IMG/VR virus record: IMGVR_UViG_3300045988_126226
Coordinates: 131,035 to 192,808 of that record
Source of the DNA: a virus
DNA: 61,774 nucleotides
Direction: 5' to 3' (one strand)
Positions within the stretch are counted from its first letter, which is position 1; each line of letters opens with the position of its first letter. The notes under the pieces are model-generated. The model was not told the origin of the DNA, did no database searches, and was given only the letters and a program-made list of their open reading frames with translations. A program made the position numbers and the translations under genes. Shown here one piece after another: positions 18,821 to 33,336 of the stretch.

Positions 18821-18859
18821 GGGCCTTGCGCCCTCCCCCCTTGCGGGGCAATCATCTAT

Positions 18860-18879: not shown

Positions 18880-18908
18880 GTTAGCGCGTTAGCGCAGAAA
18901 GGCACATT

Positions 18909-19070
18909 ATGTCTACTATCAAGACTCTTCTCGACGGTGTTCTTCTTGTCAAGCCCTTGTCTTATGTCCTCGGTGAGGACTGGACTTACCTCTATTCCGA
19001 CGTCTACAAGGGCGTGGAATATGACGTCCATGCTTGCATGAACGGCGAGGTTGTCGCGGTGTTATGCTGA
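18909..19070 (+). CDS. hypothetical small protein (53 aa)
   Basis: ATG 18909 after gaaagg, TGA stop, followed by hairpin gaggggattatcccctc. Confidence 0.45.
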   Translation: MSTIKTLLDGVLLVKPLSYVLGEDWTYLYSDVYKGVEYDVHACMNGEVVAVLC

Positions 19071-19134
19071 GGGGATTATCCCCTCAGCCCCTCTAAAAAC
19101 TATATGCGCGCTTTAGCGCGGGAAAGGTCATATT

Positions 19135-19611: not shown

Positions 19612-19642
19612 CCCACTCGCTCCATAGAAAGAGGTGTATATT

Positions 19643-19790: not shown

Positions 19791-20150
19791 ATGAAAAACA
19801 TCATCAACTATATGCTTGCTATTGCACTTCTAATTAGTGCTACTATGTTTGTATCTCACAACCAAACTACCGAAGCGTGTGAAGAAGCACCGCAGTCATA
19901 TGACCTCACTGTTATTGACAACTGGTGCGGCGCAGGCACAGAACGCGGAAGTATTCGTTTCGTCGGCGCGGAAGTTAAATCCCGAAACGGGGACATTATC
20001 ACACTACTGGACGAACAGGGCAATCTGTGGGAAGTCGAACATATGAACATTGATGATAATGACTTCCTGTTGTTGTGGATAAATGACAACGATACATATG
20101 ATGACTTTTCAGATGATGTTATCATTAAGGTATGGAGAGAAGCTTATTAA
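19791..20150 (+). CDS. secreted/signal-peptide protein (119 aa)
   Basis: SD gagaggaaag, N-terminal hydrophobic segment, TAA stop. Confidence 0.5.
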   Translation: MKNIINYMLAIALLISATMFVSHNQTTEACEEAPQSYDLTVIDNWCGAGTERGSIRFVGAEVKSRNGDIITLLDEQGNLWEVEHMNIDDNDFLLLWINDNDTYDDFSDDVIIKVWREAY

Positions 20151-20159
20151 GCTTCTCTC

Positions 20160-20440
20160 TTTATTTTTCATTTTGATTCATAAATATTCATATGAATATT
20201 CATTGCATATTCATACATTGGCTTGGCCGGCCCGCTGACGTGCGTTGCGCAAGTCAGCGGGCCGAGTTTTGCAATAGGCAAGTTGCACAAAAATTTTCAG
20301 ACGAATTTGTGCATTATGCCAGTCGCCTTTATGCACCCGAAAATGAATATTTATACATGAATATTTATGCAGCCCTGATGAATAAATATTTTTTTCAAAA
20401 ACCTATTGACATTCAGTCCAAAAGTGGTATAATAGAGGTA
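20160..20440 (+). promoter_or_regulatory. regulatory cassette A: ATGAATATTCAT palindromes, 11-bp GC hairpin (20229-20263), TGCACAAA/TTTGTGCA inverted repeat, promoter ttgacat-N17-tataat (20406-20434)
   Basis: sequence read directly; architecture shared with cassettes B-G. Confidence 0.5.
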
Positions 20441-20465
20441 TCAAAAGAAAAGGAGATACGCCACA

Positions 20466-20762
20466 ATGACTAATACCGAATTTCTCAAGACCCTCTCGCT
20501 CGAAAAGACGCGCCTCGAACATGAGCTTGCCACTGCCACGGAAAAGGCTGATGACCTCGATGATGCGGAAACGCTTGCATGGGCGGCAGTCGTTACCATG
20601 GAGCACGCACCAGAAGAGGAATATACCCGTGAACAGTGCGAAGCCATCTATGACGCATATGAACAGGCAATGCGCGCAAGTGAGGAGCAAGCCGACTATA
20701 TAGAAGAAATTGAAAACACAATCGAAAAAATCAAATCGTTAATGGAAATGTACGAGGATTAA
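20466..20762 (+). CDS. acidic helical protein (98 aa)
   Basis: SD aaaaggag, TAA stop. Confidence 0.55.
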   Translation: MTNTEFLKTLSLEKTRLEHELATATEKADDLDDAETLAWAAVVTMEHAPEEEYTREQCEAIYDAYEQAMRASEEQADYIEEIENTIEKIKSLMEMYED

Positions 20763-20850
20763 ACCTCGTACATTTTTTTATAAATGGTATTGACAAATGC
20801 CCTGTTATCTGCTATAATGTAGATACAATAAAGAAAAGGAGATAACAACA

Positions 20851-20979
20851 ATGTATGAATTCGAGTTTATCAATAAAATCACTAATGAGCATGACATTCG
20901 ACAGTCATTATACTGCAAGGCTCCGGATCTCGGTCCGGACTGGGAGCTTGTTTTTACTGAGTATGTGGAGGAATATTAA
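20851..20979 (+). CDS. small protein (42 aa)
   Basis: promoter ttgaca/tataat upstream, SD aaaaggag, TAA. Confidence 0.45.
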   Translation: MYEFEFINKITNEHDIRQSLYCKAPDLGPDWELVFTEYVEEY

Positions 20980-20980
20980 A

Positions 20981-21085
20981 ATGAGTTTACATGATGGTTT
21001 AGTTTTACTTTTCATTTATACCGGTACAATCGGCGTGGGCGCGCTCATTGAATGGGCAGAAAAGAAACTGAAAAAGAGAAGTTGA
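20981..21085 (+). CDS. small membrane peptide (34 aa)
   Basis: ATG 2 nt after previous stop; terminator follows. Confidence 0.4.
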   Translation: MSLHDGLVLLFIYTGTIGVGALIEWAEKKLKKRS

Positions 21086-21172
21086 AAAACTTCTCTTTTT
21101 TTTCATTTTACCTATTGACAAACTCTAAAAGTGTGCTATAATGGTAGTATCAAAAGAAAAGGAGCTTTTCAA

Positions 21173-21448
21173 ATGAAAACATACAACATCATCGACGCTG
21201 AGACTAAGACTACCGCAGTTTTCCATGTCGCAAAGAATGAAAAACTTTTAGACCGGCTCGAAGAAACACTCTATATCACACAAGAATTAGAGCCGTATTT
21301 CAGAGATTGGAAATCGCATCTTGCGACTTTTGGTTGGGCTGATTTTAGTTACCATTGTGTTGAATTTTTCCGCGTGTCCTATGACTGGGCTGACTCGCCG
21401 ATTGAGGTTAAACCAATCGACTATCCGGTGAATAGATTGGAGCAGTAA
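21173..21448 (+). CDS. hypothetical protein (91 aa)
   Basis: promoter ttgacaa..tataat, SD aaaaggag, TAA. Confidence 0.55.
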   Translation: MKTYNIIDAETKTTAVFHVAKNEKLLDRLEETLYITQELEPYFRDWKSHLATFGWADFSYHCVEFFRVSYDWADSPIEVKPIDYPVNRLEQ

Positions 21449-21543
21449 TGCTCCAATCTTTTTTCAAACTTTTTTGAAAAACCTATTGATAAATCCCGAA
21501 TCTATGGTATAATAAGAGTATAAAAAGAAAGGGGATAAACCAA

Positions 21544-21738
21544 ATGTTATTTATTGTTTCTGTCAACTACTACAACTATAAGGCTGATGATAACAACCGT
21601 TATCGCTATGAAGTGTCTGTCGCGGGACAGGAAAACGCATATGCCCTCGGGCAGAAGTTCATGGACGCAGACAACGTCCTCTCGGTTGACATTATCGATG
21701 CAATGACCGGCGAAGTCATCGAGAGTTGGGAAGAATAA
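21544..21738 (+). CDS. hypothetical protein (64 aa)
   Basis: promoter ttgataa..tataat, SD aaagggg, TAA, terminator. Confidence 0.5.
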   Translation: MLFIVSVNYYNYKADDNNRYRYEVSVAGQENAYALGQKFMDADNVLSVDIIDAMTGEVIESWEE

Positions 21739-21869
21739 AAAAGCTCGGCAGGATATACAAAATCCTGCCGAGCTTTTTATTCAATTTGCCTATTGACTTT
21801 TGTTATAGCTCATGCTATACTATAATTGTTCCAAGGGAACGACATTAAAGATGAAAGAGGTTAATAAAG

Positions 21870-22109
21870 ATGACTTTGGGCATGGTTAAAAATGTGATTG
21901 GTCTGGTAAAGGGCGCGCTGATGTTCTATGAGGGGAACGGTATTGAAGTGATAAATGAAAACACTTGCGGCCGCTATCTCAAAGACCGCAAAGGTCGCAT
22001 GACTCTGAACGGCGATGTTTTGGGCGCAAGCGAGGAATGGGTGCTGGGACTGCCGGTCAGCGGTTTGAAAGCCAAAGATGACGTTCTCATTATTTATGTT
22101 GATGGTTAA
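21870..22109 (+). CDS. hypothetical protein (79 aa)
   Basis: SD agagg, TAA. Confidence 0.5.
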   Translation: MTLGMVKNVIGLVKGALMFYEGNGIEVINENTCGRYLKDRKGRMTLNGDVLGASEEWVLGLPVSGLKAKDDVLIIYVDG

Positions 22110-22124
22110 AATTAAATTTTTTGA

Positions 22125-22330
22125 ATTAAAAATCTCCCCAAAAATGGGGAGATTTTTTTGTATATTTTGCCTATTGACAATCCCAAAACTTTGTGGTATA
22201 ATCGGCCGGCCGTGCACGCCAGGCGCGGCCGGAATTTTGTGTCAATATGCAAGTTCAACAATTTTTATGGCGAAAGTTTGTGCATAATGTCAATAGACAG
22301 AATCCCGAATCGGTGCTATACTATAATCAC
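22125..22330 (+). promoter_or_regulatory. regulatory cassette B: terminator; P1 ttgaca(22174)-tggtataat; hairpin ccggccg..cggccgg (22203-22232); P2 tagaca-N17-tatact (22293-22322)
   Basis: read directly. Confidence 0.55.
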
Positions 22331-22374
22331 AGTAAGGGAAGGAAAACCTAAACAAACCGGAAAGGGATAACAAC

Positions 22375-22683
22375 ATGATTAACATTCGTTCTATTCGCAA
22401 GCTCGCTGAAAACGATGGCCTGACTCTCAAATATGGCAAGAAAATCAACTACAAGTCCGGTTGGCAAGTCGCTACCGATGGCGTAGAGTGCAAGACCGCG
22501 CGCGAGGCCATTAACGCGGTCAAGGAATATGGCGGAAACTGCGGGGTATGGCTTGCGAACGGCATCTATTATGTTGACAAGTCCAAGAGAGTGCAGACTA
22601 AGAAGCAGGCGCTTGAAATTGGCAAGGCGTGCAATCAAATCAGCGTATATGGCTGGGCGCGCGGGAATCTCGCCTATTGCTAA
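22375..22683 (+). CDS. hypothetical protein (102 aa)
   Basis: SD aaagggat, TAA. Confidence 0.55.
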   Translation: MINIRSIRKLAENDGLTLKYGKKINYKSGWQVATDGVECKTAREAINAVKEYGGNCGVWLANGIYYVDKSKRVQTKKQALEIGKACNQISVYGWARGNLAYC

Positions 22684-22761
22684 AAGAAATTGCATATAGG
22701 GCTTGACAAAAGCCCTTCCGCATGATATAATACATATACAATCAAGAAAGAGGTAAGTAAG

Positions 22762-22911
22762 ATGGATATGGTTCGAGTTTACAATAGACACACTAACGAA
22801 GTTCTTGAAAAGACCTTTGCAGACCCCGCGGACGCAGACGACTTTGAAACTATTCTCGACTTCCTTGAAGCGGAATATGAGCGCTACCACGATGGGGAAC
22901 AATGTTATTAA
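22762..22911 (+). CDS. small acidic protein (49 aa)
   Basis: promoter cttgacaa..tataat, SD aagaaagagg, TAA. Confidence 0.45.
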   Translation: MDMVRVYNRHTNEVLEKTFADPADADDFETILDFLEAEYERYHDGEQCY

Positions 22912-22983
22912 AGGGGCTTGACAAGCCCCTCCCCATATGGTATAATACAATCAATCCAAGAGGAAAAGAAAGAGGTAAAACAA

Positions 22984-23322
22984 ATGCTTATCAAAATGTC
23001 AAAACACGCCACGCAAGACCGCATTGACCGCTTGTTCTTCATCTATGACAATATCGGTATTGGTGAGCCATATATCGACAGCGCTGAGGAAGATGTTCTC
23101 TACACCATCACTACAACAGGCGTTCTTCTTGTTCGTAGTGCTACGGACGGCACACTCATTACAGCCTATATCGCGAATATTGACAAAATCACCGCGATAT
23201 GGAGAAACAAGCACGGCGAGCGCCCCATGCCTGACAACCTTTACAAGCGTGTCCTCGCAAATGCGTTCTTTGATAGAATGTGGAATAAACAGGAAAAGGA
23301 GAAAAAGAAAAATGTTCGGTAA
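22984..23322 (+). CDS. hypothetical protein (112 aa)
   Basis: promoter ttgacaa..tataat, SD aaagagg, TAA. Confidence 0.5.
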   Translation: MLIKMSKHATQDRIDRLFFIYDNIGIGEPYIDSAEEDVLYTITTTGVLLVRSATDGTLITAYIANIDKITAIWRNKHGERPMPDNLYKRVLANAFFDRMWNKQEKEKKKNVR

Positions 23323-23668
23323 GAAGAAAGAAAAGAAATTCAATCCCTATGAGAATCGCGCAGACGAAATGCTTTATAAGGTTTGGGAAGAGCGCGACCG
23401 CCTGCTTGAAAAGACAAGGCAAGCTATTACGCGCGTAGGAGTGATTAACCTCTACCCCGATGGCGCTGACCGCAAGAAAGCCGTCTCTGACGCCGAAGAA
23501 GCGAAGCACGCTTTGCTTGTAGCTATTGGAGCATACGACACCGCGCGCATGGAGTATAATAACTACATCAAAAAGTATGCGGAAAAGTTCGATAGCCCCA
23601 AAGAGGAATGGACTACCACGAGCCATGAAATTATTGAATGGGCTTACAAATACTATTATAAAGGGTGA
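23312..23668 (+). CDS. hypothetical protein (118 aa), basic N-terminus
   Basis: ATG 23312 with SD aaaaggag; overlaps previous gene end. Confidence 0.5.
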   Translation: MFGKKKEKKFNPYENRADEMLYKVWEERDRLLEKTRQAITRVGVINLYPDGADRKKAVSDAEEAKHALLVAIGAYDTARMEYNNYIKKYAEKFDSPKEEWTTTSHEIIEWAYKYYYKG

Positions 23669-23673
23669 ACGAA

Positions 23674-23913
23674 ATGAAAATTACTGTTAAGCATAGCAAC
23701 AAAATGGTTGCATTTGAAGACCTCCCCGAGGGTATGATTTTTCAAGACCCTGCTTCTGGAAACGTTTATTACATCAAAATCGCGTCTGTGGTTGATGAAG
23801 ATACCGGCGCAGAAGAATGGAACGCTCTCAATTTAGACACTTACAATCTCGACTGCTTTGGCGCGCCCTGCATGGTTCGGCCTGTCTATGACGCGGAACT
23901 GATTATCCCTTGA
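23674..23913 (+). CDS. hypothetical protein (79 aa)
   Basis: ORF with SD aagggtg, TGA. Confidence 0.5.
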   Translation: MKITVKHSNKMVAFEDLPEGMIFQDPASGNVYYIKIASVVDEDTGAEEWNALNLDTYNLDCFGAPCMVRPVYDAELIIP

Positions 23914-24009
23914 CAAAACCGAACTTTTGTTCGTGTTTTTCTCCCCCTTTCCTATGGCTTTGGCGGTTGTGCCTGAAACAACCGCCACCCTTTCCAAAAA
24001 ATAAATTGA

Positions 24010-24201
24010 ATGGAGATAAGAAAAATGAAAAATGAGAAACTGAGCGAGGTTGTTGAAACGGTGTGCAGAATGGCTCGATACGGTATTCAGAAGAGATATC
24101 CATCGGGCGGGACAGCGGCAAATGAAATGATTGAGCGTGTCGCGCTTCTTGAAGATAAGCTCGTCCCCATTCTCGTCGACCTCGAAGCCGTAGGAAACTA
24201 A
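24010..24201 (+). CDS. hypothetical protein (58-63 aa)
   Basis: two candidate ATGs (24010/24025) after ggagataag; TAA; terminator follows. Confidence 0.45.
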   Translation: MEIRKMKNEKLSEVVETVCRMARYGIQKRYPSGGTAANEMIERVALLEDKLVPILVDLEAVGN

Positions 24202-24203
24202 AT

Positions 24204-24400
24204 GAAAAATCACCCAATTTGGGTGATTTTTTTTGTTTACTTTCACTATTGACAAAGTTCCTTGAATGTGATAAAATTGGCGGCGCGCGGACGATTGTAG
24301 CGCGCCGAGTTTTTTGTCAAGAGGTAGATTCAACAAATTTTCATACGAATTTTTGTGCAAAATGCCAATAGACAAAAATCCTATAATGTGGTAAGATGTA
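24204..24400 (+). promoter_or_regulatory. regulatory cassette C: terminator; P1 ttgaca(24249)-tgtgataaaat; hairpin cggcgcgc..gcgcgccg (24279-24309); TGTCAAGAG (24314); P2 tagaca-N17-taagat
   Basis: read directly. Confidence 0.55.
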
Positions 24401-24424
24401 TACAACAAATAAAGGGGGACTAAA

Positions 24425-24772
24425 ATGATGGTTGCATGGTATTGGTTGATTCTCGCGTTTTGCGTGGGTATTGCGTTCGCTACAATCACCGATGAGTGGT
24501 GTGATTGGGAAAATACTTTAACAGATGTTCTCGCATGGATTGCTCTGATTATCGGCTTCGTTCCTTTGTCTTTCTATTGCATATTTCTCAAACTGACGGT
24601 TTTTCACCCCACAACGCCAGAGAAATTTGAAGAAGTTAAAAAGGTTAGCGGAGAGACTTGTAAAATCTATCGAGTATGCGGAAACGTGTATTTTTGGATT
24701 GACCTTAAAGCAACAAAAATCTATAACAAGGTCTTTTTTGTCCGAGTAAAGGAGACTGAAAACAATGTATGA
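24425..24772 (+). CDS. membrane protein (115 aa, 2 TM)
   Basis: SD aaaggggga, hydrophobic helices, TGA. Confidence 0.55.
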   Translation: MMVAWYWLILAFCVGIAFATITDEWCDWENTLTDVLAWIALIIGFVPLSFYCIFLKLTVFHPTTPEKFEEVKKVSGETCKIYRVCGNVYFWIDLKATKIYNKVFFVRVKETENNV

Positions 24773-24923
24773 GGAAGTTAATACTTTGCGCTTGATTGAT
24801 TGGTTGCGCGCTTGGACGGAAACCTTTAATGACTGCGCTTGTTGTCCTTTGTCCAACGAGTGCGACCGCCGAAGCATCAGCTATGAATGTGCTGATGACC
24901 TATTAGAAAAATTAAAAGAGTAA
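24765..24923 (+). CDS. Cys-rich small protein (52 aa)
   Basis: SD aaaggagac, CACCP..C..C motif, TAA. Confidence 0.45.
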   Translation: MYEEVNTLRLIDWLRAWTETFNDCACCPLSNECDRRSISYECADDLLEKLKE

Positions 24924-24996
24924 ATTAAAAACTCTCTATTGACATTTCTATTATAATATGATATTATTATAATAGAAAAAGGAAAGGGTGATAATA

Positions 24997-25470
24997 ATGA
25001 ATACAATTCTTCTGTTCGCACTTTGCACGGCGGTGAATGTGATTCTGTCAACCATCAAAAGCATTTTGACTGTCAACGGCGGAAAGATTAGCGCGTCTCT
25101 TATCAATGCCATCACTTATGGTTTTTATTCCTATGTGATTGTGCTGACTTCCGCGGACGGTATGCCTATTTGGTTAAAAATGGCTATTACTGCCGTTTGT
25201 AATTTCATAGGCGTTTACCTTGTCAAGTGGATTGAAGAGAAAGCCCGCAAAGATAAATTATGGAAAGTCGAGCTTACTGTCCCGACAAAATACACTAACA
25301 CCATTGATTTTGATTTGCATGACGTTCCACATTCTTACATTGAATTGAGCGATAAACATACGCTTTTCAATTTTTACTGCGCGACCCAAAAGGAAAGCGC
25401 AAAAGTCAAGGCTATTGCCAATCAATACGAAGCAAAATATTTTGTCGCGGAAAGCAAAAATCTTGAATAA
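24997..25470 (+). CDS. membrane protein (157 aa)
   Basis: SD aaaggaaagggtg, N-terminal TM helices, TAA. Confidence 0.55.
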   Translation: MNTILLFALCTAVNVILSTIKSILTVNGGKISASLINAITYGFYSYVIVLTSADGMPIWLKMAITAVCNFIGVYLVKWIEEKARKDKLWKVELTVPTKYTNTIDFDLHDVPHSYIELSDKHTLFNFYCATQKESAKVKAIANQYEAKYFVAESKNLE

Positions 25471-25534
25471 AGGACTTGACAAAAGCCTTTTGTTCTGCTA
25501 TACTTAATGTATCAAGTGAAAGGGGAAAATTAAA

Positions 25535-25987
25535 ATGAAAGCTACTGGTATTATCCGCAGAATTGATGACCTTGGACGTGTGGTTATTCCGAAAGAGATT
25601 CGCCGGACTTTGAAGATTCGCGAGGGCGACCCGCTTGAAATCTTCATTGAAGACAACGACTGCGTTTGCTTTAAGAGGTATTCGGTGCTTGGTTCGCTGA
25701 CCGAAGAAGCTCTGCGAACCGCTATTACAATGGCATCGAATTCCGGTCTGCGCCCTATCGCAATCTATGATACTACCGTGAAACTGCGGGGTATGGAAAA
25801 CTATCCGGCTTATGTTCCGACCCAGTGGAAATTTGAAAGAAAGCCGTTTGTTTTCAATAGCACTTATGGCGTTTATCCGATTACCGCGGACGGCGACCTT
25901 GTGGGTTATGCGGTTTGCGACCAGCAAGACATGGGTTGCGAAATGGATATGATTGTCCGCTATCTCAGCATTGTGTCTGAATGTTAA
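25535..25987 (+). CDS. AbrB/SpoVT-family transcriptional regulator (150 aa)
   Basis: N-terminus GIIRRIDDLGRVVIPKEIRRTLKIREGDPLEIF matches the swapped-hairpin AbrB/MazE/SpoVT DNA-binding domain; C-terminal extension as in SpoVT. Confidence 0.65.
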   Translation: MKATGIIRRIDDLGRVVIPKEIRRTLKIREGDPLEIFIEDNDCVCFKRYSVLGSLTEEALRTAITMASNSGLRPIAIYDTTVKLRGMENYPAYVPTQWKFERKPFVFNSTYGVYPITADGDLVGYAVCDQQDMGCEMDMIVRYLSIVSEC

Positions 25988-25992
25988 AAATA

Positions 25993-26245
25993 TTTTGAGA
26001 CGAGATAACCAAATCTCGTCTCAAAATTTTATTTATTTTGCCTATTGACAAAAATCCAATAGCGTGATAAAATGGCCGGCCGTTCGCGCATGCCACGGCC
26101 GGAAATTCCATTATACCACCATCTCAGCAATTTGTCAATAGGAAATTTAGCCAAAAGTCTAACTAATTATTTTCCCGAATTTGGGCATTTTACCAATAGA
26201 CAAGAATGTAATAATCTGCTATACTATGATTACCGTAAAGGAAAG
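25993..26245 (+). promoter_or_regulatory. regulatory cassette D: terminator; P1 ttgaca(26045)-gtgataaaat; hairpin ccggccg..cggccgg (26074-26102); conserved spacer; P2 tagaca(26197)-N17-tatact
   Basis: read directly. Confidence 0.55.
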
Positions 26246-26257
26246 GGGATATAAACA

Positions 26258-26521
26258 ATGTATTACACTCACGATTTTTCTACTGAAAAGTTCTCTACTC
26301 GCGGAGAATGTGTGGAAGAGCTTCTTTCTTCTATGGATTCTCTTGATATTTCAGAGTTTCTCGCCCACCGCGTTTCTCTTGCTGATATTATTAGTGAACG
26401 CATGGCCCGCGACCCCGAGGACTTTTACGACTGGTTAGATAGAGAAATTCAGATTGCGACTAATGCCTATCTTGAATGGCATATCAACGAACACTACGGT
26501 CATATAGAGGATTTAGAATGA
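26258..26521 (+). CDS. hypothetical protein (87 aa)
   Basis: SD aaaggaaagggg, TGA. Confidence 0.55.
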   Translation: MYYTHDFSTEKFSTRGECVEELLSSMDSLDISEFLAHRVSLADIISERMARDPEDFYDWLDREIQIATNAYLEWHINEHYGHIEDLE

Positions 26522-26661
26522 TTATTTTAATCGGCATTTTCGGCCTCGTTTTTGGCTTTATTTTTGCTTATTCCTGTGAAAGTCTCGGGTGGGACTATTT
26601 CAATATCGTATACGCTATTCCTGTGCTGATTTTGCTTAATTTCTTATCTTTCGTGTATTGA
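26518..26661 (+). CDS. small membrane peptide (47 aa)
   Basis: ATGA overlap with previous stop; hydrophobic. Confidence 0.4.
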   Translation: MIILIGIFGLVFGFIFAYSCESLGWDYFNIVYAIPVLILLNFLSFVY

Positions 26662-26752
26662 AAAAGACCGCGAAAATTTTGAAAAAAACGCTTGACAAGC
26701 AAATCCAATAGTGGTATAATACAGATACAGTAAAGGAAAGGGGTAAATACCT

Positions 26753-27253
26753 ATGAAAATCACTTACATCAAGTCTCACGTTGTAGCTACTCGACGCTCC
26801 ATCAACTTTGATATGGACGGCACTATCGCCAATCTGTATAATGTTGACAAGTGGTTAGAAAAACTTGGAGAAGAAGATGCTTCTTGTTATAGTGAAGCTG
26901 GCCCTATGTGCGATATGGCCGCGCTGAATGAAATCTGCGAACTTCTCCGCGCCGAGGGTTGGGAAATCAATATCATCACTTGGCTTGCTAAAAATTCAAC
27001 TGAGGAATATAAAAACCTCGTGCGTGAAGCAAAGCGCGAATGGCTTGAAAAATGGGGTTTCCATTACGACCATTTTTACGGCGTCCAGTATGGCGCAACC
27101 AAAGCCGACAGCGTGCGCGGTCGTTATGACGTGTCTATCCTGATTGACGATAATGAAAAGGTTCGGAATGGTTGGCACTTGGGCGCTACCATTGACCCGA
27201 CCGCAGTAAACATTATCGAAAAACTTTCGGAACTTTTGGAGAAAAGGGCTTGA
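26753..27253 (+). CDS. HAD-superfamily phosphatase, likely 5'(3')-deoxyribonucleotidase-like (166 aa)
   Basis: motif I FDMDGTIANL (DxDG[TV]) near N-terminus and ILIDDN motif IV; promoter cttgacaa..tataat; SD aaaggaaagggg. Confidence 0.6.
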   Translation: MKITYIKSHVVATRRSINFDMDGTIANLYNVDKWLEKLGEEDASCYSEAGPMCDMAALNEICELLRAEGWEINIITWLAKNSTEEYKNLVREAKREWLEKWGFHYDHFYGVQYGATKADSVRGRYDVSILIDDNEKVRNGWHLGATIDPTAVNIIEKLSELLEKRA

Positions 27254-27308
27254 CAAAGCCCTACTCCAATGGTATAATAAATACATCAAATGAAAAGGGG
27301 AAAATAAA

Positions 27309-27515
27309 ATGTTTGTTCTTTTGATTCTGCTGTCTCTCGCTGTTTCGTTCCTGCTTACCTCGGGTTTGGTTTGGCTTCTCTGTTGGCTTCTTCCCGCCCT
27401 CGGTATCACCGCAATCGGCACTTTTGTTATCGTGTTCTCGTGGAAGCTGGCGCTCGTGGTTTGGATTGTTCTCGTGCTTTTACAGTCCATCTTCTCGGTC
27501 GGCAATAAGGGGTGA
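27309..27515 (+). CDS. small membrane protein (68 aa, 2 TM)
   Basis: SD aaaagggg, hydrophobic. Confidence 0.5.
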   Translation: MFVLLILLSLAVSFLLTSGLVWLLCWLLPALGITAIGTFVIVFSWKLALVVWIVLVLLQSIFSVGNKG

Positions 27516-27520
27516 TAAAA

Positions 27521-27664
27521 ATGATGCCTTACTTTTGGCTTACTCTTGGCGTTCTCGCCAAAGTGACCGGACGAACTGCCGGTGGTAATTACCGTTATGA
27601 AACGGTTGTCTCTAAGGAAATTGGACTTGTGACCGCAGATTGGGTTAATACCCATCTGTTGTGA
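27521..27664 (+). CDS. small protein (47 aa)
   Basis: ATG 27521 after ggggtgataaaa; TGA. Confidence 0.4.
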   Translation: MMPYFWLTLGVLAKVTGRTAGGNYRYETVVSKEIGLVTADWVNTHLL

Positions 27665-27671
27665 GGTAAAA

Positions 27672-27986
27672 ATGCTGTATTTGATGATGGATAATTTAAC
27701 CAATAGCCATTTGGTTAAAGTTGGCTATTCTGACGGCACTAAGAACCTCGCAAAGCGTCGTAAAAGCTATTATAGCCACAATCCGAAAGCAATAATGCGT
27801 AGCACTTGCGCCGGAAGTCGAGACATAGAAAATTCTTGTCATCTGACTTTAAGTGAGTTAGGCAATCGCATTAGTGGCACAGAATGGTTTGAAGTGTCTG
27901 CGGATTTGTTTAATTCTCTTTATACCGAGGGAATGGCATTTTTCAGACCAAACCATAAACCGATTCATTTCTTAGAAGAATTTTGA
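27672..27986 (+). CDS. T5orf172/GIY-YIG-like domain protein (104 aa)
   Basis: VKVGYSDGTKNLAKRRKSY...TEWFEV pattern typical of the T5orf172 family. Confidence 0.45.
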   Translation: MLYLMMDNLTNSHLVKVGYSDGTKNLAKRRKSYYSHNPKAIMRSTCAGSRDIENSCHLTLSELGNRISGTEWFEVSADLFNSLYTEGMAFFRPNHKPIHFLEEF

Positions 27987-28000
27987 AAGAGGAAATAAAA

Positions 28001-28258
28001 ATGAAAGTAAATTTTGGCACTAAGGGTCAGCTTCAAATTATCAACATTCTCAGTGGTGGCACGTTCACCACCCCGCGTTCCAATGGCGTCGGCATGGGAA
28101 TGTATCTCAAAATTGACAGCAACAACAACACGCCGTTCGTTCGGTCGAGAGGTTCGCAGTATTGCTACGCGGTAAATCTTGAAACGGGTCAGGTTCGCGA
28201 GTTCTCGCGCGACAAAATGGTGACGCCGGTCAAGACCGAAGTCAATGTGATTGGCTAA
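28001..28258 (+). CDS. hypothetical protein (85 aa)
   Basis: SD agaggaaa, TAA, terminator. Confidence 0.5.
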   Translation: MKVNFGTKGQLQIINILSGGTFTTPRSNGVGMGMYLKIDSNNNTPFVRSRGSQYCYAVNLETGQVREFSRDKMVTPVKTEVNVIG

Positions 28259-28261
28259 AAG

Positions 28262-28492
28262 AAAATCTCCCCAAAAATGGGGAGATTTTTTTTGTTTACT
28301 TTAACTATTGACAAAACCATCTAAATGTGCTAAAATTGGCCGGTCGCTGACGCATGTTGCGACCGGAATTTACCATTATACACCCCACCAGCATTTTTGT
28401 CAAGAGAAATTTCGCACAAATTTCAATTTTATTTTTTCCCGTTATTTGGTTATTTTACCAATAGACAAATCATTACCAATCTGCTATACTAC
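28262..28492 (+). promoter_or_regulatory. regulatory cassette E: terminator; P1 ttgaca(28308)-tgtgctaaaat; hairpin ccggtcgc..gcgaccgg (28338-28366); TGTCAAGAG (28399); P2 tagaca(28462)-N17-tatact
   Basis: read directly. Confidence 0.55.
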
Positions 28493-28494
28493 AT

Positions 28495-28638
28495 AATGTC
28501 AGGAGGAAAGAGTAAGACCTGCGGAAAGGCAGTTCCCTTGACCATTATACCAAAATCCGACGGAATGTTCCAAGCGTGGCGTGCCGAACAAACTTTCAAA
28601 AAAAGTTTGAAAAACCCCTTGACAAACCGTTCTACGTA
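28495..28638 (+). ncRNA. promoter-proximal leaderless transcript AAUGUCAGGAGG... (sRNA or 47-aa leaderless ORF MSGGKSK.. ending in TAG)
   Basis: AUG lies 5 nt after -10 tatact; no SD; paralogous to 31032 and 31215 elements; ends at -35 of next promoter. Confidence 0.4.
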
Positions 28639-28901
28639 GGGTATAATGAATACATCAAATAAGAGAGGTAAACAAAATGATTTCTGATGCTCGTCCACCG
28701 CCTTAAAGACTGATTTGGTTTAGTAAAATGAATTGATTTATGATTATAGATAAAGGTAGGTATAAACAAGATGTATAGTAATAAACCTCGCGACCGCCCC
28801 CTAAAAAAATTGTAAAACCTATTGACAACCTGCTCCGCCTATGATATAATAACTACATCAAAGACAAGGACAGTCTTAAAAACCAGAAAGGAATTGATAC
28901 T

Positions 28902-29276
28902 ATGTCTACTTCTACTGTTAAGAAGCTCACCAAGCGCGACCGTTTCGAGGCTCTGCTCAAAATGAGCGAGGTTCAGGCGAATCCTGATATGGTGGCGTTC
29001 ATTGAGCATGAGATTGAACTGCTCGCCAAGAAGAACGCGGGCGATAAGAAGCCCACGGCCAAGCAGATGGAGAATGACGCCGTGAAGCAGGTCATTCTGG
29101 ACGAGATGACCGCAAACCCTGACAAGCTGTATACCGTGACCGACCTCATCAAGGGCGTTCCCGAGCTTGCGGAGTATACCAACCAGCGCGTTTCCGCTCT
29201 TCTGCGTCAGATGATTGATGCAGACACGGTTGTCAAGACGGTTGACAAGCGCAAGTCCTACTTCTCCCGCGCGTAA
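28902..29276 (+). CDS. paralog family protein A (124 aa)
   Basis: SD aaaggaa; about 70% identical to 31522..31899; distant paralog at 50327. Confidence 0.6.
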   Translation: MSTSTVKKLTKRDRFEALLKMSEVQANPDMVAFIEHEIELLAKKNAGDKKPTAKQMENDAVKQVILDEMTANPDKLYTVTDLIKGVPELAEYTNQRVSALLRQMIDADTVVKTVDKRKSYFSRA

Positions 29277-29419
29277 GGGTAAAGGGCAGGGGATAAAAAA
29301 AATCCCCTGCCCCACAATAAAAAACTGTTGACAAACCAATAGCAAAGTGCTATACTATTATCAGAGGTTGAGAGAACGATGGTAAACCTCAATCTACTTT
29401 TCCAATAGGAGACGATAAA

Positions 29420-30196
29420 ATGGGTATTGATAGGCGCAGAAACTACGGTATTATGCTGGACACGGAAACCGCAAACACCATTCAAGATGGTGATAAGCTG
29501 GATATGTCAAATGTTCTCCCCTACGACTTTGGCTGGGCGGTCATTGATTCCAAGGGTAATGTTTATGAGACTTATTCTTTTGTGAATCGAGACATTTTCT
29601 GCTATGAGCGCGACCTGATGCAGTCCGCATACTACGCCAATAAGATTCCCCGCTACATCGAGGACATTAAGAACGGTTCGCGCGTGATGGCTGACCTTTA
29701 CGAAATCCGCAAGGCATTTTGTGATTGCGTCGAGCGTTATAACTGTTCTTTCGTGTGCGCTCACAATATGCGGTTCGACCTTAACGCCTGCAACAACGCG
29801 CAAAGATGGGACACGAAAAGCAAGTATCGCTATTTCTTCCCCTACGATCTCGAAATCTGGGACACTCTGAAAATGGCGCGACAGGTTATGGGTAAAATGC
29901 CCACTTACCGCGACTATTGCGAAAAAAACGGCTACAAGACCAAGAACGGACAGCTCCGTTTCACCGCAGAAATTCTTTACCGCTTTATCAGCGGTGAAGA
30001 TAGCTTTGATGAATCCCACACGGGACTTGAAGATGTTCTCATTGAAGTTGAGATTCTGCGCTATTGCGTCCGACAGCACAAGGAAATGGAAAAGTCCCTT
30101 TTCAAAACTCCCACAGTGGAACGTCCCAAGCCGACCGAGTTTCAGCGCGCGCTCATGCGAAACATTAAGGAAAATCCCATGATAAACATGAGCTAA
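29420..30196 (+). CDS. DEDDh-type 3'-5' exonuclease (DnaQ/RNase T-like, 258 aa)
   Basis: Exo I MLDTETA, Exo II CAHNMRFDL, Exo III HTGLEDV motifs in correct order and spacing. Confidence 0.65.
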   Translation: MGIDRRRNYGIMLDTETANTIQDGDKLDMSNVLPYDFGWAVIDSKGNVYETYSFVNRDIFCYERDLMQSAYYANKIPRYIEDIKNGSRVMADLYEIRKAFCDCVERYNCSFVCAHNMRFDLNACNNAQRWDTKSKYRYFFPYDLEIWDTLKMARQVMGKMPTYRDYCEKNGYKTKNGQLRFTAEILYRFISGEDSFDESHTGLEDVLIEVEILRYCVRQHKEMEKSLFKTPTVERPKPTEFQRALMRNIKENPMINMS

Positions 30197-30274
30197 AAAA
30201 AAATAGGGAATGGGGCTTGACAAGTCCTATTCCCTATGGTATAATCAATGTATCAAATGAAAGAGGTGTTTTAC

Positions 30275-30553
30275 ATGACTGCTAAACAAGTCCTTTTTGT
30301 AGTCCCTGATGACAATGACCCTCACATGGGCATTTTAATCGACCATGACTATATTATCTGCGCCGAGTGCGGTGGCGTCTTTGAAGCTGACGAAGTTTTC
30401 ATTATTCAGATCTACGACTCTTGGGTAAACTTTGAAGATGAAATTGCGGACGAGCTTGACCTGCTGACCGCAAAAGACATTGGCAAGGAGCTGGATAGCA
30501 AGGAAAAGTTCGGCTGGGACGCGTGGAAAGAAGCCATTAAAGGGGAGTTCTGA
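30275..30553 (+). CDS. hypothetical protein with CxxC pair (92 aa)
   Basis: promoter cttgacaa..tataat, SD aagaggtg, TGA. Confidence 0.5.
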   Translation: MTAKQVLFVVPDDNDPHMGILIDHDYIICAECGGVFEADEVFIIQIYDSWVNFEDEIADELDLLTAKDIGKELDSKEKFGWDAWKEAIKGEF

Positions 30554-30555
30554 AA

Positions 30556-30648
30556 ATGGATTTGGATTTTACTTACATGACCAACGAAGAACTGGACGAA
30601 CTCATCGCTCAGATAAAGGAAGTCAAAGAAACCCGAGCGGAAAGCTGA
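30556..30648 (+). CDS. small acidic peptide (30 aa)
   Basis: ATG 3 nt after previous stop. Confidence 0.3.
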   Translation: MDLDFTYMTNEELDELIAQIKEVKETRAES

Positions 30649-30799
30649 AAGACTGACCTTTGGAGAAACGTTCAGCGGTCGGTTCAGAATTACGTCATGG
30701 AGTGTGGAATGATTGAACTCTTTACCGAGGACTACAATTCCACGCTGGACGCTGATTCTTTCCGTATTCCCGGCGAGATTAACCTGCTGGACTAAAATA

Positions 30800-31030
30800 A
30801 AAAACTGCCCAAAAATGGGCAGTTTTTTTTGTCTATTTTGCCTATTGACAAACGCGGATTTTTGTGATAAAATGGGCGGACCGCTGGCGCATGCGGCGGT
30901 CCGAATTTTTAATTATACCATGCCCCGCCAATTTTGTCAAGAGAAAAGCTGCACAAAAGTAAAGAAAATTTTTTCCCGTAATTTGGTTATTCTGTCAATT
31001 GTAATTTGTGGGCAATCTGCTATAATGAAT
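30800..31030 (+). promoter_or_regulatory. regulatory cassette F: terminator; P1 ttgaca(30845)-gtgataaaat; hairpin cggaccgc..gcggtccg (30875-30903); TGTCAAGAG (30935); P2 -10 tataat (31021)
   Basis: read directly. Confidence 0.55.
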
Positions 31031-31031
31031 A

Positions 31032-31175
31032 ATGTCAAGAGGGAAACCCCTGAGCCACAGGTCGGTGTGGGGCTACGGTTGGAAGTAGCAATAGACCGTT
31101 CACCTATTACGTTAAGGTCTCTTCGGAGCGGAACGCACGGGATAAAAGAAAAAATTCATGAGTTTTTTCTTGAAA
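31032..31175 (+). ncRNA. candidate sRNA 1 (starts AAUGUCAAGAGGGAAA; contains CUC-UUCG-GAG tetraloop hairpin)
   Basis: own promoter (-10 tataat 31021); no SD; only an 18-codon ORF ending in TAG; ends at -35 of next promoter. Confidence 0.45.
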
Positions 31176-31214
31176 ACCTCTTGACAAATCCCAGCGAGTG
31201 TGCTACAATAGAAA

Positions 31215-31440
31215 ATGTCAAGAGGGAGTAGCCCAAGAAATCCGAGGGCGCGCGACTTCGAGAAAGTACAGGAAGTAAACATAATATACCACGTTGTAAA
31301 GCCAAACGTTGAACGCGAAAGTGAGTTTGATTGAGCCAACTATACTCGAAGCGGTTTTCGCTGACAGATAGATTGAACCAACAAACAATAAATTATCCGT
31401 CAGGTCGGGGTAGTAATTCGTGTAAAAAGTTTGCGAAACC
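31215..31440 (+). ncRNA. candidate sRNA 2 (starts AAUGUCAAGAGGGAGU; shares CAGGUCGG motif with sRNA 1)
   Basis: own promoter ttgaca(31181)-N17-tacaat; no long ORF or SD; followed by promoter of 31522 gene. Confidence 0.45.
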
Positions 31441-31521
31441 TCTTGACAAGCACTCTAAAATGTGGTATACTCAATATATCAAAAGGGTAGCGACCTACCG
31501 CCAAAGAAAGGAATTGATACT

Positions 31522-31899
31522 ATGTCTACTTCTACTGTTAAGAAGCTCACCAAGCGCGACCGTTTCGAGGCTCTGCTCAAACTGTCCGAAGTTCAGGCTG
31601 ACCCCGCCATGGTTGAGTTTATCAATCACGAGATTGACCTGTTGGCTCGCAAGAACGCGGGAGACAAGAAGCCCACGGCGAATCAGATTGCCAACGACGG
31701 CTACAAGGACATTATCTTTGCTGAGCTGTCCGCGAATCCCGACAAGCTGTATACCGTGACCGAACTCATCAAGAACGTGGACGGTCTGGGTGACCTCACC
31801 AATCAGCGCGTTTCCGCTCTTTTGCGTCAGATGATTGACGCGAACGGCGTCGAGAAGATTGTGGACAAGCGCAAGTCCTACTTCCGTCTCGCGCGCTGA
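31522..31899 (+). CDS. paralog family protein B (125 aa)
   Basis: promoter cttgacaa(31443)..tatact, SD aaaggaa, TGA, strong terminator 31903-31935. Confidence 0.6.
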   Translation: MSTSTVKKLTKRDRFEALLKLSEVQADPAMVEFINHEIDLLARKNAGDKKPTANQIANDGYKDIIFAELSANPDKLYTVTELIKNVDGLGDLTNQRVSALLRQMIDANGVEKIVDKRKSYFRLAR

Positions 31900-31999
31900 T
31901 TCAGGGGGAGCGCCTGAAAAAAATCAGGCGCTCCCAAAAATTTCTCTTGACATTTGCTGACGGCGGTGTTATAATCATACTTGAAAGGGGGCAAAAGAA

Positions 32000-32407
32000 A
32001 TGCCTAAAATGAGTGAAAAGGACTTTCAGGCAAAGATTGATAATCTAATGAAAAAATTAGATTGTACTGCCGAGGAAGCAAAAGAAATTCTCATGGACGA
32101 TGATGACATTGACCATGGAATCGCCAAGGACTTTGACCTGTCCGCGGAAAAGCTCAAAGAAGCTAACAAGTATTCTAAGACCGGAACACGCAAAGCGCCG
32201 ACCGCTTATAAATTCGAGAAGCGACAGCGCAAGGAAAACCCCACAAAACGCTCGATTATCGCTGAACTTGCGACTTTTTTGCGTGAAAACAGCGAAAATG
32301 CGTGCGAAAATGTGGAAATTACGAATGTGGAGCGCATGATTGCGTTCCATGTGGGCGAAAATGACTACGAATTGACCCTGATTCAGAAGCGAAAGCCCAA
32401 AAACTGA
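32000..32407 (+). CDS. hypothetical protein (135 aa)
   Basis: promoter ttgacat..tataat, SD aaaggggg, TGA, terminator 32412-32452. Confidence 0.55.
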   Translation: MPKMSEKDFQAKIDNLMKKLDCTAEEAKEILMDDDDIDHGIAKDFDLSAEKLKEANKYSKTGTRKAPTAYKFEKRQRKENPTKRSIIAELATFLRENSENACENVEITNVERMIAFHVGENDYELTLIQKRKPKN

Positions 32408-32525
32408 TGAAAAAGGGTGAAAAACCGCTGAAAAATGCGGTTTTTCACCCAAAAACAAGTCAAAAAATGCAAAAAAATAATGGTTGAAAGAACGATGGTA
32501 AACCTCAATCAATAGAGAGGATTTT

Positions 32526-32942
32526 GTGCGAATGGAAGAAATTACTATTAAGCTACGCCGATTTAAGGACGGCAGACCGCCCGTTTCAATGGAGTTTATG
32601 CCCGATTGTGGCGAGAATCTGAAAGACGTTCAAGCGGTTTATTTCTTCAAGTTTTACAACAACAACAAACTTGAATTTAACAAGGTAGGCACTTCCGCAA
32701 AAGACGTTGTAGGGCGCTTACGTGATGAAATCGGCGAATACTCGAAAAAGTATTCTATCACTCGCGTTGAGATTCACCGAATCCGTTCTTGTGGGGACTA
32801 TCCCGCCGAGGGTGCGGAATCGGCATTGCGTGCGGAACTGATTAGACGCTACCCCAAAGCGTTTAGAAAGAATGACCGCTTTTTCAATGTGGACATTAAC
32901 CCCACGGTTTTCGATGAAATTGTAAACGCATTTCTTGCATAA
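32526..32942 (+). CDS. hypothetical protein (136-138 aa; GTG 32526 or ATG 32532)
   Basis: SD agagagga; preceded by conserved leader stem-loop; TAA; terminator 32950-32985. Confidence 0.5.
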   Translation: MRMEEITIKLRRFKDGRPPVSMEFMPDCGENLKDVQAVYFFKFYNNNKLEFNKVGTSAKDVVGRLRDEIGEYSKKYSITRVEIHRIRSCGDYPAEGAESALRAELIRRYPKAFRKNDRFFNVDINPTVFDEIVNAFLA

Positions 32943-32949
32943 ATATTCA

Positions 32950-33062
32950 ATCAGCAGGTTGACTAAAACCTGCTGATTTTTTTTGTGTATTTTGCCTATT
33001 GACACCGATCGGAAAATGTGGTATAATGGCCGGGCCGGGGTGGGACGTCCCGGCCCGATTTC
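32950..33062 (+). promoter_or_regulatory. regulatory cassette G: terminator; P1 ttgaca(32998)-tggtataat; GC hairpin 33028-33057; followed by ~270 bp non-coding with CCATATG inverted repeat
   Basis: read directly. Confidence 0.5.
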
Positions 33063-33336
33063 CCGATCGGTATACCCATATGCAAAATTTCTCATACTTC
33101 TAGCACCTCTCCATATGGCCCAAAAAAATCCCGAAAATTGACTTTTTATAAAAAATATGTTATAATGATAAAAAAAGACTTTTTTAAGCCCGCGTAGGAT
33201 CATATGCCTTTATAATTAATTAAAAATTGCTTCGCCCTTACATTGTTTCACGCGTATGTTTTCGTCCAAAAAAATCTTGACATTTTTAAAAAAAAAGTAT
33301 ATAATATATATAGAAAATAAGAAAAGAGGTATTCAT

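Follow-up and report, generated by a model that had tools for sequence, protein, structure and literature searches.

Repeated early promoter and stem-loop cassettes in uncultivated phages, with a predicted face-to-face promoter pair around a covarying hairpin

What kind of element is formed when a promoter runs, within a few nucleotides (nt) of its -10 box, into a perfectly paired GC-rich hairpin, and which molecule makes use of that hairpin? The question is raised by the uncultivated virus IMGVR_UViG_3300045988_126226 of the IMG/VR database, a gut phage with a recoded stop codon. We analysed 61,774 nt of this record (positions 131,035 to 192,808; the window in what follows), in whose early region a cassette of terminator, promoter P1, GC hairpin and second promoter P2 recurs. 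From its sequence we conclude that the feature is real, repeated and conserved in at least 61 contigs of uncultivated phages, and that it is a kind of composite promoter/stem-loop early cassette. The number of contigs is a hand count among the 80 loci listed; many of the contigs are 80-200 kb long.

A sequence-only reading had proposed seven cassettes, A to G, with the same order of parts. This stood for B (22128-22322), C (24204-24397), D (25992-26225), E (28258-28490), F (30799-31026) and G (32949-33166), all of which have a terminator (T1), P1 of the form CTATTGACA-N14-TGnTA(A/T)AAT and then the hairpin. It did not stand for A, an orphan 37-nt hairpin that has neither the P1 nor the P2 consensus. 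The pattern of P1 plus hairpin start had 6 matches in the window against 0.00 expected; this architecture and its non-random recurrence are observed directly. The hairpin does start just after the -10 box, as had been stated: in B-G it begins 2-3 nt past it, is exactly 27 nt long and folds at -17.7 to -22.9 kcal/mol. In the terminator scan T1 scored as a terminator on both strands in B-F; in G the T-run on the minus strand was poor. Two layouts were distinguished, type I in D, E and F and type II in B and C. P2 had been given as TAGACA-N17-TATACT, which is correct for B, D and E; C has TAGACA-N17-TAAGAT, F has TTGTAA-N16-TATAAT, and A has none.

What sets type I apart is a further promoter on the opposite strand. 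The promoter scan found three perfect (12/12) minus-strand promoters, running from 26138 to 26110, 28403 to 28375 and 30940 to 30912. Among the 21 perfect promoters of the window only these three oppose the local genes, and they occupy the equivalent position in D, E and F. We call this far promoter Pfar; its -10 box is 7-8 nt from the stem, that of the near promoter P1 2-3 nt. The roughly 110 nt behind the hairpin had been described as a conserved spacer. The conservation among D, E and F was borne out, yet the segment is no passive spacer, being a minus-strand consensus promoter plus the upstream region of P2. The motif TTTGTCAAGAG that had been singled out in it is the reverse complement of the Pfar -35 box, and CCATTATACC that of the extended -10 box TGGTATAAT.

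In cassette D the bidirectional T1 (25992-26027), the predicted 3' end of an antisense RNA, is followed by P1 (26045-26073, plus strand), by the hairpin between the converging promoters (26076-26102) and by Pfar (26110-26138, minus strand), a perfect TTGACA-N17-TGGTATAAT with its -10 box 7 nt from the hairpin. Then come TTTTCCCGAATTTGGG (26170-26185), the right half of a conserved element between Pfar and P2, and P2 itself (26197-26225, plus strand), TAGACA-N17-TGnTATACT, ahead of the gene at 26258-26521. Cassette E has a bidirectional T1 at 28258-28293, P1 at 28308-28336 (plus), the hairpin at 28340-28366, Pfar at 28375-28403 (minus; perfect TTGACA-N17-TATAAT, -10 box 8 nt from the hairpin), the motif TTTTCCCGTTATTTGG at 28434-28449 and P2 at 28462-28490 (plus), TAGACA-N17-TGnTATACT, followed by ATAATGTCAGGAGG and no convincing open reading frame (ORF). 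The corresponding parts of F are the bidirectional T1 (30799-30828), P1 (30845-30873, plus), the hairpin (30877-30903), Pfar (30912-30940, minus; perfect TTGACA-N17-TGGTATAAT, -10 box 8 nt from the hairpin), the motif TTTTCCCGTAATTTGG (30971-30986) and P2 (30999-31026, plus), TTGTAA-N16-TGnTATAAT, followed by ATAATGTCAAGAGG. All copies of P1 and Pfar, and P2 of B, D, E and F, were called by the promoter scan.

By alignment, the type II cassettes B and C are without the approximately 25 nt that hold the Pfar -10 box and spacer; a T-run and an inverted -35 box abut the hairpin, and there is no antisense -10 box. B comprises a bidirectional T1 (22128-22157), P1 (22174-22202, plus; TTGACA-N17-TGnTATAAT), the hairpin followed by AATTTTGTGTCAA (22206-22232; terminator-like on the plus strand in the scan) and P2 (22294-22322, plus; TAGACA-N17-TGnTATACT) ahead of the gene at 22375-22683. 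C comprises a bidirectional T1 (24204-24232), P1 (24249-24277, plus; TTGACA-N17-TGnTAAAAT), the hairpin followed by AGTTTTTTGTCAAGAGG (24281-24307) and a P2-like promoter (24369-24397, plus; TAGACA-N17-TAAGAT) ahead of the gene at 24425-24772. G, which lacks the conserved spacer of D, E and F, has T1 at 32949-32978 (plus), a P1 of perfect consensus at 32999-33027 (plus) and the hairpin at 33031-33057, with a homology junction with relatives at 33027-33037.

Is the hairpin itself under selection? The stems of the window copies differ yet pair perfectly, from which compensatory change had been proposed and a covariation analysis across related phages suggested. IMG/VR was searched with P1 and the first five hairpin bases only, so that the 3' arm stood outside the query; 88 stretches matched. 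The same pattern occurred in 28 stretches of metagenome-assembled genomes, mostly from animal or human gut, with Clostridia or Eubacteriales as the commonest bin label. Among GenBank phages neither the cassette DNA nor the pattern of P1 plus hairpin start found a match. In about 70 of the 81 unique IMG/VR sites the stem is perfect over 7 bp or more, though the 3' arm was not queried. The 110 unique sites of promoter plus hairpin over all loci have 46 different 5' arms, nearly all of them in strict Watson-Crick pairing; 79 of the hairpins measure 27 nt in total and 15 measure 29 nt. The 57 unique 27-mers share the profile C-S-G-n-n-C-G-(13 nt)-C-G-n-n-C-S-G, in which C1, G3, C6, G7 and their partners are invariant, pairs 2, 4, 5 and 8 are variable and an off-centre CG is conserved in the loop. 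In an ungapped alignment 98.7% of the cells were paired, compared with 26-46% when the 3' partner was slid, a figure that is partly circular as the aligned sequences were pre-selected for having a stem; both sides have changed in seven of the eight pairs. Counted from the stem base, the second pair is C-G in 30 sequences and G-C in 27. Distant relatives, for example locus L040, keep the full layout with unrelated stems and loops. Conservation and covariation are thus observed in dozens of related phage contigs, and the claim that the hairpin is kept by compensatory change was upheld.

The rare pairs that are not Watson-Crick show no strand bias (5 G-T versus 4 A-C). As a test for the transcribed strand this was uninformative; it fits a use of the hairpin on both strands or in DNA, and the strand is not identified by it. 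An apical mini-helix in the loop (positions 11-18 and 12-17) was considered and dropped, its first pair failing in 26 of 57 sequences. So was a small peptide starting at an AUG in the minus-strand loop: the AUG is not kept in the loops of relatives. The loop measures 11 nt in most copies (range 3-13), longer than the 3-8 nt usual for terminators. After the stem, type II sites have at least 6 T in 8 nt on the plus strand in 22 of 30 cases; in type I the U-tracts amount to 4-5 T in 8 nt on either strand and start 2-3 nt after the stem. The type II hairpin looks like a second terminator for upstream read-through, and only such read-through would meet the whole stem because P1 is predicted to start inside its 5' arm.

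Which RNA would carry the hairpin? Transcription usually starts about 7 nt after the -10 box. The stem begins at nt 3-4 after the P1 -10 box in the window and at nt 3-5 across the relatives, i.e. inside the discriminator. We infer a P1 start at stem position 4-5, which would remove 3-5 nt of the 5' arm. RNAs from the canonical P1 +1 keep only 4-7 bp (-5.9 to -15.8 kcal/mol). Among possible roles, the sequence-only reading had named a 5'-terminal stem-loop or attenuator of the P1 RNA; with the canonical start in the 5' arm and 4-7 bp left, this was not supported for the complete hairpin. The second pair covaries despite its position in the P1 discriminator; on this prediction, selection on the full stem must act through something other than P1 RNA. 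Pfar, by the same spacing, would start 0-3 nt before the stem, so that its RNA would open with the complete hairpin; near an RNA 5' end the complete hairpin is thus expected in the predicted Pfar RNA and not in the P1 RNA. The Pfar RNA is predicted to run antisense across the P1 promoter to T1, over approximately 115-122 nt. In D it would be a minus-strand RNA of about 120 nt (25985-26106; ends taken from promoter and terminator) with a folding energy of -45.6 kcal/mol and z = -6.2. The predicted RNAs of 118-122 nt fold into a 5' hairpin, an AU-rich single strand and a terminator, with z = -5.0 to -6.2. The 5' A-tract that minus-strand termination needs is present in 22 of 37 T1 elements before type I cassettes and in 73 of 200 other terminators, which is weak evidence because the sequences are related.

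Is the convergent arrangement tied to the hairpin? In the related loci, convergent pairs were collected without a condition on the intervening DNA; a GC hairpin lay between them in 72 of 78 unique segments. In hairpin-bearing pairs one -10 box is 2-4 nt and the other 7-9 nt from the stem, always asymmetrically. Pfar was kept in most relatives that had been retrieved by P1 and the hairpin start alone, its hexamers unchanged across variable spacers. When IMG/VR as a whole was scanned for consensus convergent pairs 33-41 nt apart, there were 110 matching stretches with 97 unique segments, of which 52 have a strong GC hairpin (27 nt long in 39), 30 a weaker stem and 15 none. The GC-hairpin class of this wider set shows the same geometry as the related loci. 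By sequence, face-to-face pairs are spread beyond this phage group, and the GC hairpin of fixed geometry marks a subset of them. Loci L117-L189 hold convergent pairs 33-41 nt apart without a GC hairpin, including one recurrent family with GGGTAA...TTACCC arms. Very close face-to-face promoters may be a wider, little-studied motif. In cassette E a second antisense promoter-like site, TTGGAA-N18-TGGTATAAT (28544-28573, minus strand), faces P2 across the small hairpin CTGCGGAAAGGCAG; possibly the convergent layout recurs downstream of P2.

Beyond the -35 box of Pfar there follow GCACAAA, 22-24 nt, TCCCR, AAATTTGTGCA or ATTTGG, and then P2. Of 73 unique type I cassettes, 38 have all three parts of this inverted repeat and 63 have the CCCR core. 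In the window the repeat TGCACAAATTT...TCCCR-AAATTTGTGCA is degenerate; distant relatives have a clean repeat of 11-12 bp. The exact inverted repeat TGCACAAA-N14-TTTGTGCA of A (20284-20313), matched twice in the window with 0 expected, and the Pfar/P2 inverted repeat of the relatives are one and the same. Accordingly, we read the motifs TTTTCCCGnAATTTGG and TTTGTGCA of the sequence-only reading as one element between the back-to-back -35 boxes of Pfar and P2. That reading had seen the TGCACAAA/TTTGTGCA repeats before P2 in A, in C and near 18384; they are present in A and at 18380-18419, and C has the right half only. Their proposed role as an operator is plausible: the repeat is kept in relatives and its position suits a candidate operator, or else it could be an upstream element shared by both promoters. 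A cognate binding protein was not assignable among the early products by Pfam, PHROG or structure model. A DNA-binding protein of the AbrB/MazE type (SpoVT-AbrB fold) is encoded at 25535-25987, directly upstream of cassette D, and is a candidate early regulator or antitoxin mimic. The C-terminus of a 124/125-amino-acid paralogue resembles, by eye, a winged helix and is a candidate only; the structure of the 124-residue form, modelled from a single sequence with a mean predicted local distance difference test score of 66.7, was too poor for a search, and its case as a regulator on structural grounds was dropped.

Do the cassettes also serve the exchange of modules? The relatives are 66-96% identical to the window, and cassettes contain junctions of insertions, deletions and replacements that distinguish close relatives. 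Homology breakpoints fall into cassettes in 27 of 99 cases, the cassettes covering 12.5% of the region (about two-fold enrichment). Where the window has one hairpin at G, relatives L044, L071 and L051 have a pair separated by 110-735 nt; in L051 an AT-rich HNH homing-endonuclease gene with an in-frame TAG (4960-5690) lies between two cassette hairpins. L017 has an extra small gene unit beside D, with its own promoter and terminator, and in the orthologous B cassette the hairpin differs from phage to phage.

Taken together, we tentatively prefer, at somewhat less than an even chance, to read the element as an insulated promoter cassette similar to the PeSL (promoter early stem-loop) elements of T4-like phages, equipped with a face-to-face promoter pair for control by interference or antisense RNA. 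The bidirectional T1 would end the upstream module. P1, in its sequence a strong host sigma-A-type promoter with extended -10 box, would open a module of about 2 kb of small early genes, and as the hairpin would straddle its start, its own RNA would escape the hairpin. An RNA that crosses the whole hairpin, i.e. upstream read-through on the plus strand or Pfar RNA on the minus strand, would meet a barrier or terminator, the plus-strand case being clearest in type II. The Pfar RNA might be released just past the hairpin or run some 115 nt to T1, yielding a small antisense RNA with a 5' stem-loop. RNA polymerase usually has a footprint of -55 to +20, and because the predicted starts of P1 and Pfar are only about 24 bp apart both promoters should not be occupied together; Pfar would depress P1 and leave P2 independent. 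A factor on the inverted repeat could set the balance of P1 and Pfar, and the conserved promoter and hairpin sequences may double as recombination linkers for the gain and loss of modules. Several points weigh against this proposal. A strong T1 only about 45 nt upstream makes a second barrier look redundant. The type I U-tracts are weak whichever strand is considered, and the 11-nt loop is long for an intrinsic terminator. Orphan hairpins with neither promoter exist (A, and H2 of L044 and L051), and the 15 stemless and 30 weakly paired segments among the 97 indicate that the hairpin is not needed for the convergent layout. Breakpoints cluster equally at ordinary promoters. The RNA ends on which termination and interference depend are all inferred from consensus spacing. 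The TAAAAT form of the P1 -10 box had been tried as a selected U-tract of the Pfar RNA (37 of 55 type I, 12 of 30 type II and 3 of 21 other sites) and was dropped; by eye, the excess is mostly gone when counted per hairpin family (about 9 versus 11).

Alternatively, the antisense RNA may be the purpose of the cassette: Pfar would produce an abundant RNA of approximately 35-115 nt, shielded by its 5' hairpin from 5'-end-dependent decay, that acts by a kissing loop with the 5' end of P1 RNA, on the 3' end of the upstream mRNA across T1 (as lambda oop RNA pairs with cII mRNA) or in replication priming. The perfect consensus of Pfar and its conservation in most relatives agree with this, as do the small-RNA shape of the predicted product, the classical stabiliser position of a hairpin 0-3 nt from the predicted start, the tendency of type I T1 to bidirectionality, and strict Watson-Crick pairing without G-U bias, as expected if sense and antisense RNA both fold. 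Yet type II and orphan hairpins are fully paired without Pfar, the body of the RNA is the complement of the P1 promoter, so P1 accounts for its conservation, and beyond the overlap of about 24 nt no target was identified and no known RNA family matched; we regard this explanation as rather unlikely. The original proposal, that the hairpin acts in P1 RNA as a 5' stabiliser, attenuator or antitermination target, would have to be upheld for the truncated form. The hairpin is tightly coupled to the P1 -10 box in both cassette types, a start at the G of stem position 3-4 would leave a 4-7-bp hairpin flush with the 5' end, and 5' stem-loops can protect RNA from 5' exonucleases such as RNase J1 in Firmicutes. 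But the first 2-4 nt of the stem lie within 3-6 nt of the -10 box and would be untranscribed from P1, the second base pair covaries though outside the P1 RNA, the type II T-run at 5 nt or more from the truncated stem would not attenuate P1 RNA, and orphan hairpins have no P1. These points make it distinctly unlikely.

Could the hairpin function as DNA instead? As a cruciform or hairpin extruded in replication or by negative supercoiling, it might gate both promoters or be a preferred site for recombination or a nuclease, its symmetry perhaps kept in part by template-switch correction of quasi-palindromes. Near-exclusive Watson-Crick pairing with G-T and A-C equally scarce, the fixed length, the invariant C1, G3, C6, G7 and partners and the AT-rich flanks are in line with this; so are the swapping of hairpins between orthologous cassettes, the deletion and insertion junctions and the homing-endonuclease gene exactly at hairpins of relatives, and the crossovers mapped inside PeSL stem-loops (PMC2839356). 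The breakpoints, however, are not hairpin-specific, and a dimeric protein site needs no covariation at variable positions. Loops of 7-13 nt make cruciform extrusion costly, and the loops are non-palindromic with an off-centre conserved CG. We consider a DNA-level role unlikely. Finally, the hairpins could have no dedicated function, being inherited with a duplicated promoter region, and the antisense promoters could be accidents of AT-rich sequence. The cassettes are indeed paralogous, the relatives are close (so that many counts are not independent), and hairpin-less face-to-face consensus pairs exist in other phages. Against 46 different arms that are all complementary, a geometry constant in distant relatives with unrelated stems and loops, perfect promoters expected by chance at 0.03 per window, and Pfar hexamers that stay constant while the Pfar spacer varies, this is very improbable. 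A CRISPR-repeat mimic (RNA anti-CRISPR) was rejected as the stems differ within one genome and are longer than typical repeats. Loop and stem size and the flanking sigma-A promoters speak against an N4-type hairpin promoter for a virion RNA polymerase; no search for the gene of such a polymerase was made beyond the window. Perfectly paired stems that vary in sequence and accompany a promoter led us to discard an integron attC or REP-like element.

How does the cassette compare with known systems? PeSL cassettes of T4-like phages are reportedly also described by Comeau et al. (2014; PMC4122927). PeSL stem-loops may lie just downstream of the -10 box, act as terminator or attenuator for upstream transcription and are sites of crossover (Arbiol et al., 2010; PMC2839356). 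In common with them, the present cassettes are repeated intergenic units of a strong host-type early promoter with AT-rich upstream sequence and a GC stem-loop, which in one PeSL subclass is also just downstream of the -10 box; many copies lie in a plastic stretch of small genes without known function (here seven in 13 kb), and indel and replacement junctions between close relatives fall inside the motifs. Unlike PeSL, they occur in an unrelated lineage with a terminase like those of Firmicutes phages, not in a T4-like myovirus, the stems are CSGnnCG...CGnnCSG at a fixed 27 nt instead of GGGG...CCCC, a separate bidirectional terminator lies upstream, and downstream there follow a convergent promoter of perfect consensus, an inverted repeat and then P2, none of them described for PeSL. 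Promoter and terminator activity and the formation of mini-circles count among the characters of PeSL cassettes; in the present ones the two activities are predicted. The addition of a convergent promoter and inverted repeat was not found described in PMC2839356 or in the literature searched. On sequence grounds we regard the cassette as an analogue of PeSL and not a member, to which a convergent promoter of fixed geometry and an inverted repeat are added.

Promoters pR/pL of coliphage 186 and Pe/Pc of P2 are face-to-face switches that work by transcriptional interference. The promoters predicted here would likewise be strong and convergent, with overlapping 5' transcript ends and a regulator-type inverted repeat beside one of them. 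The predicted starts, about 24 bp apart, are however closer than in 186 and P2; there are 3 copies in the window and several per relative contig, in an early region, as against a single lysis-lysogeny copy; no repressor gene is assignable, and the overlap consists of a covarying GC hairpin. Lambda oop RNA, RNAIII of pIP501 and the antisense RNAs of pT181 are short constitutive antisense transcripts. As in these, the terminator would be shared with or near the convergent sense transcript and stem-loops would fold in both RNAs; in contrast, the predicted RNA is antisense mainly to promoter DNA, the sense overlap is limited to the hairpin of about 24 nt and the T1 hairpin, and the P1 RNA has no downstream attenuator. 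Stabilisers of Firmicutes mRNAs, either 5' stem-loops or Shine-Dalgarno-like sequences, are known from ermC, aprE, the SP82 stabiliser and STAB-SD. A stable hairpin a few nt from the predicted 5' end of Pfar RNA resembles the former, whereas P1 mRNA would hold a truncated stem only. P2-type RNAs, predicted to start AUGUCARGAGG, resemble the latter by a Shine-Dalgarno-like purine run without usable start codon. The sequence '-10, 4-6 nt (usually ending ATA), ATGTCARGAGG' recurs at the P2-type promoters 28485-28510, 31021-31046 and 31204-31230 and in 52 distinct cases in the loci. Leaderless small ORFs at this ATG were rejected; the frame shifts between orthologues and they are probably non-coding. 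At about +9, GGAGG or AGAGG occurs without a following start codon and may serve as a Shine-Dalgarno-like 5' stabiliser. The host-takeover module of Bacillus phage SPO1 may offer a further parallel, being a cluster of numerous small early genes whose short operons each have strong sigma-A promoters and terminators; it is not known to contain a unit of convergent promoter and hairpin.

Almost nothing is known about the early transcription layout of uncultivated phages with recoded stop codons. The precise geometry of the cassette predicts starts on both strands, a small antisense RNA and interference at a distance of about 24 bp. If the preferred reading is true, promoter/stem-loop linkers that drive module shuffling are not peculiar to T4-like phages and would have arisen independently in a Firmicutes phage lineage, and the compact convergent-promoter design could be reused as an insulated, tunable expression part. 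Should the antisense promoter be silent, the finding would shrink to an ordinary promoter-terminator repeat. A bolder version, in our judgement rather improbable, is that promoter, 27-nt covarying hairpin and opposing promoter are an undescribed dedicated device in which two RNAs, started about 24 nt apart on opposite strands, have one strand-symmetric stem-loop in common, every cassette makes sense and antisense 5' hairpins of its own specific sequence, a kissing complex or mutual polymerase exclusion exerts control, a factor on the inverted repeat could time the modules, and the RNAs of about 115 nt form a new family of phage small RNAs.

Incomplete copies were also seen. At A the terminator of the upstream gene (20134-20160, plus strand; a terminator-like site in the scan, sequence read) is followed by the orphan hairpin (20228-20264; 12-bp stem, 13-nt loop, -33.1 kcal/mol, no adjacent P1), and a different promoter lies downstream at 20406. 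Relative L051 has an orphan hairpin, H2, preceded by a junction that resembles the TACATTGGCTTGGCCGG upstream of the hairpin in A. On either side of the hairpin in A, at 20170-20215 and 20340-20390, inversely oriented AATATTCAT / ATGAATATT repeats form arrays that look like multiple binding sites for some factor. A degenerate partial cassette (18283-18460, plus strand) at the left edge of the higher-GC early region consists of TTTTCCCGAAAT, the inverted repeat at 18380-18419 and a P2-like AATCTGCTACCAT. Modules E (28262-29276) and F (30800-31899) are paralogous, each with four tandem promoters and about 600 nt, apparently untranslated, before the 124/125-amino-acid protein (78% nt identity over 300 nt).

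In the left arm of the window (428-17135, minus strand) contiguous long ORFs appear only when TAG is read as sense. The TAG to Gln translations of the recoded ORFs match PHROG families for portal, large terminase, virion protein and sigma factor, and the nearest cultured large terminases, at 44-47% identity, are those of Enterococcus, Geobacillus E3 and SPbeta-like or related Firmicutes phages. Long ORFs at 40328-41269 and 55993-59775 require TAG as sense, too. The 15 kb from about 18.2 to 33.2 kb have 40-46% G+C, the flanks 28-35%; this region is dense with small plus-strand genes, reads in the standard code without recoding and is cut into modules of about 2 kb by the repeated cassette. We interpret the layout as that of a TAG-recoded phage whose early genes keep the standard code. 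Perfect TTGACA-N17-TATAAT promoters are so abundant in the window (21 versus 0.03 expected by chance) that 18.2-33.2 kb is taken to be an early region for transcription by the host polymerase. Its left junction is common to relatives, and therefore it is not a recent insertion. Among its ten largest products, six are without a Pfam family and six without a PHROG family.

A suppressor tRNA with anticodon CUA was not seen in the window, though the late genes need TAG as sense. ARAGORN reported a tRNA-like gene, anticodon not assigned, at 58771-58841, just upstream of a tRNA-Trp. At gathering score an Rfam scan of the whole window returned tRNAs only (58.8-61.1 kb); the sub-threshold matches of an E-value scan of 18.2-33.4 kb were all terminator-driven. 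Perfect GC-rich hairpins without a T-run lie at gene ends at 19066-19088, 19598-19620, 29284-29312 and 31906-31935; none of the four is a typical intrinsic terminator, and two have A-rich loops and a downstream A-run. A (CA)n dinucleotide run occupies 18856-18880, between genes, after the first gene of the early region.

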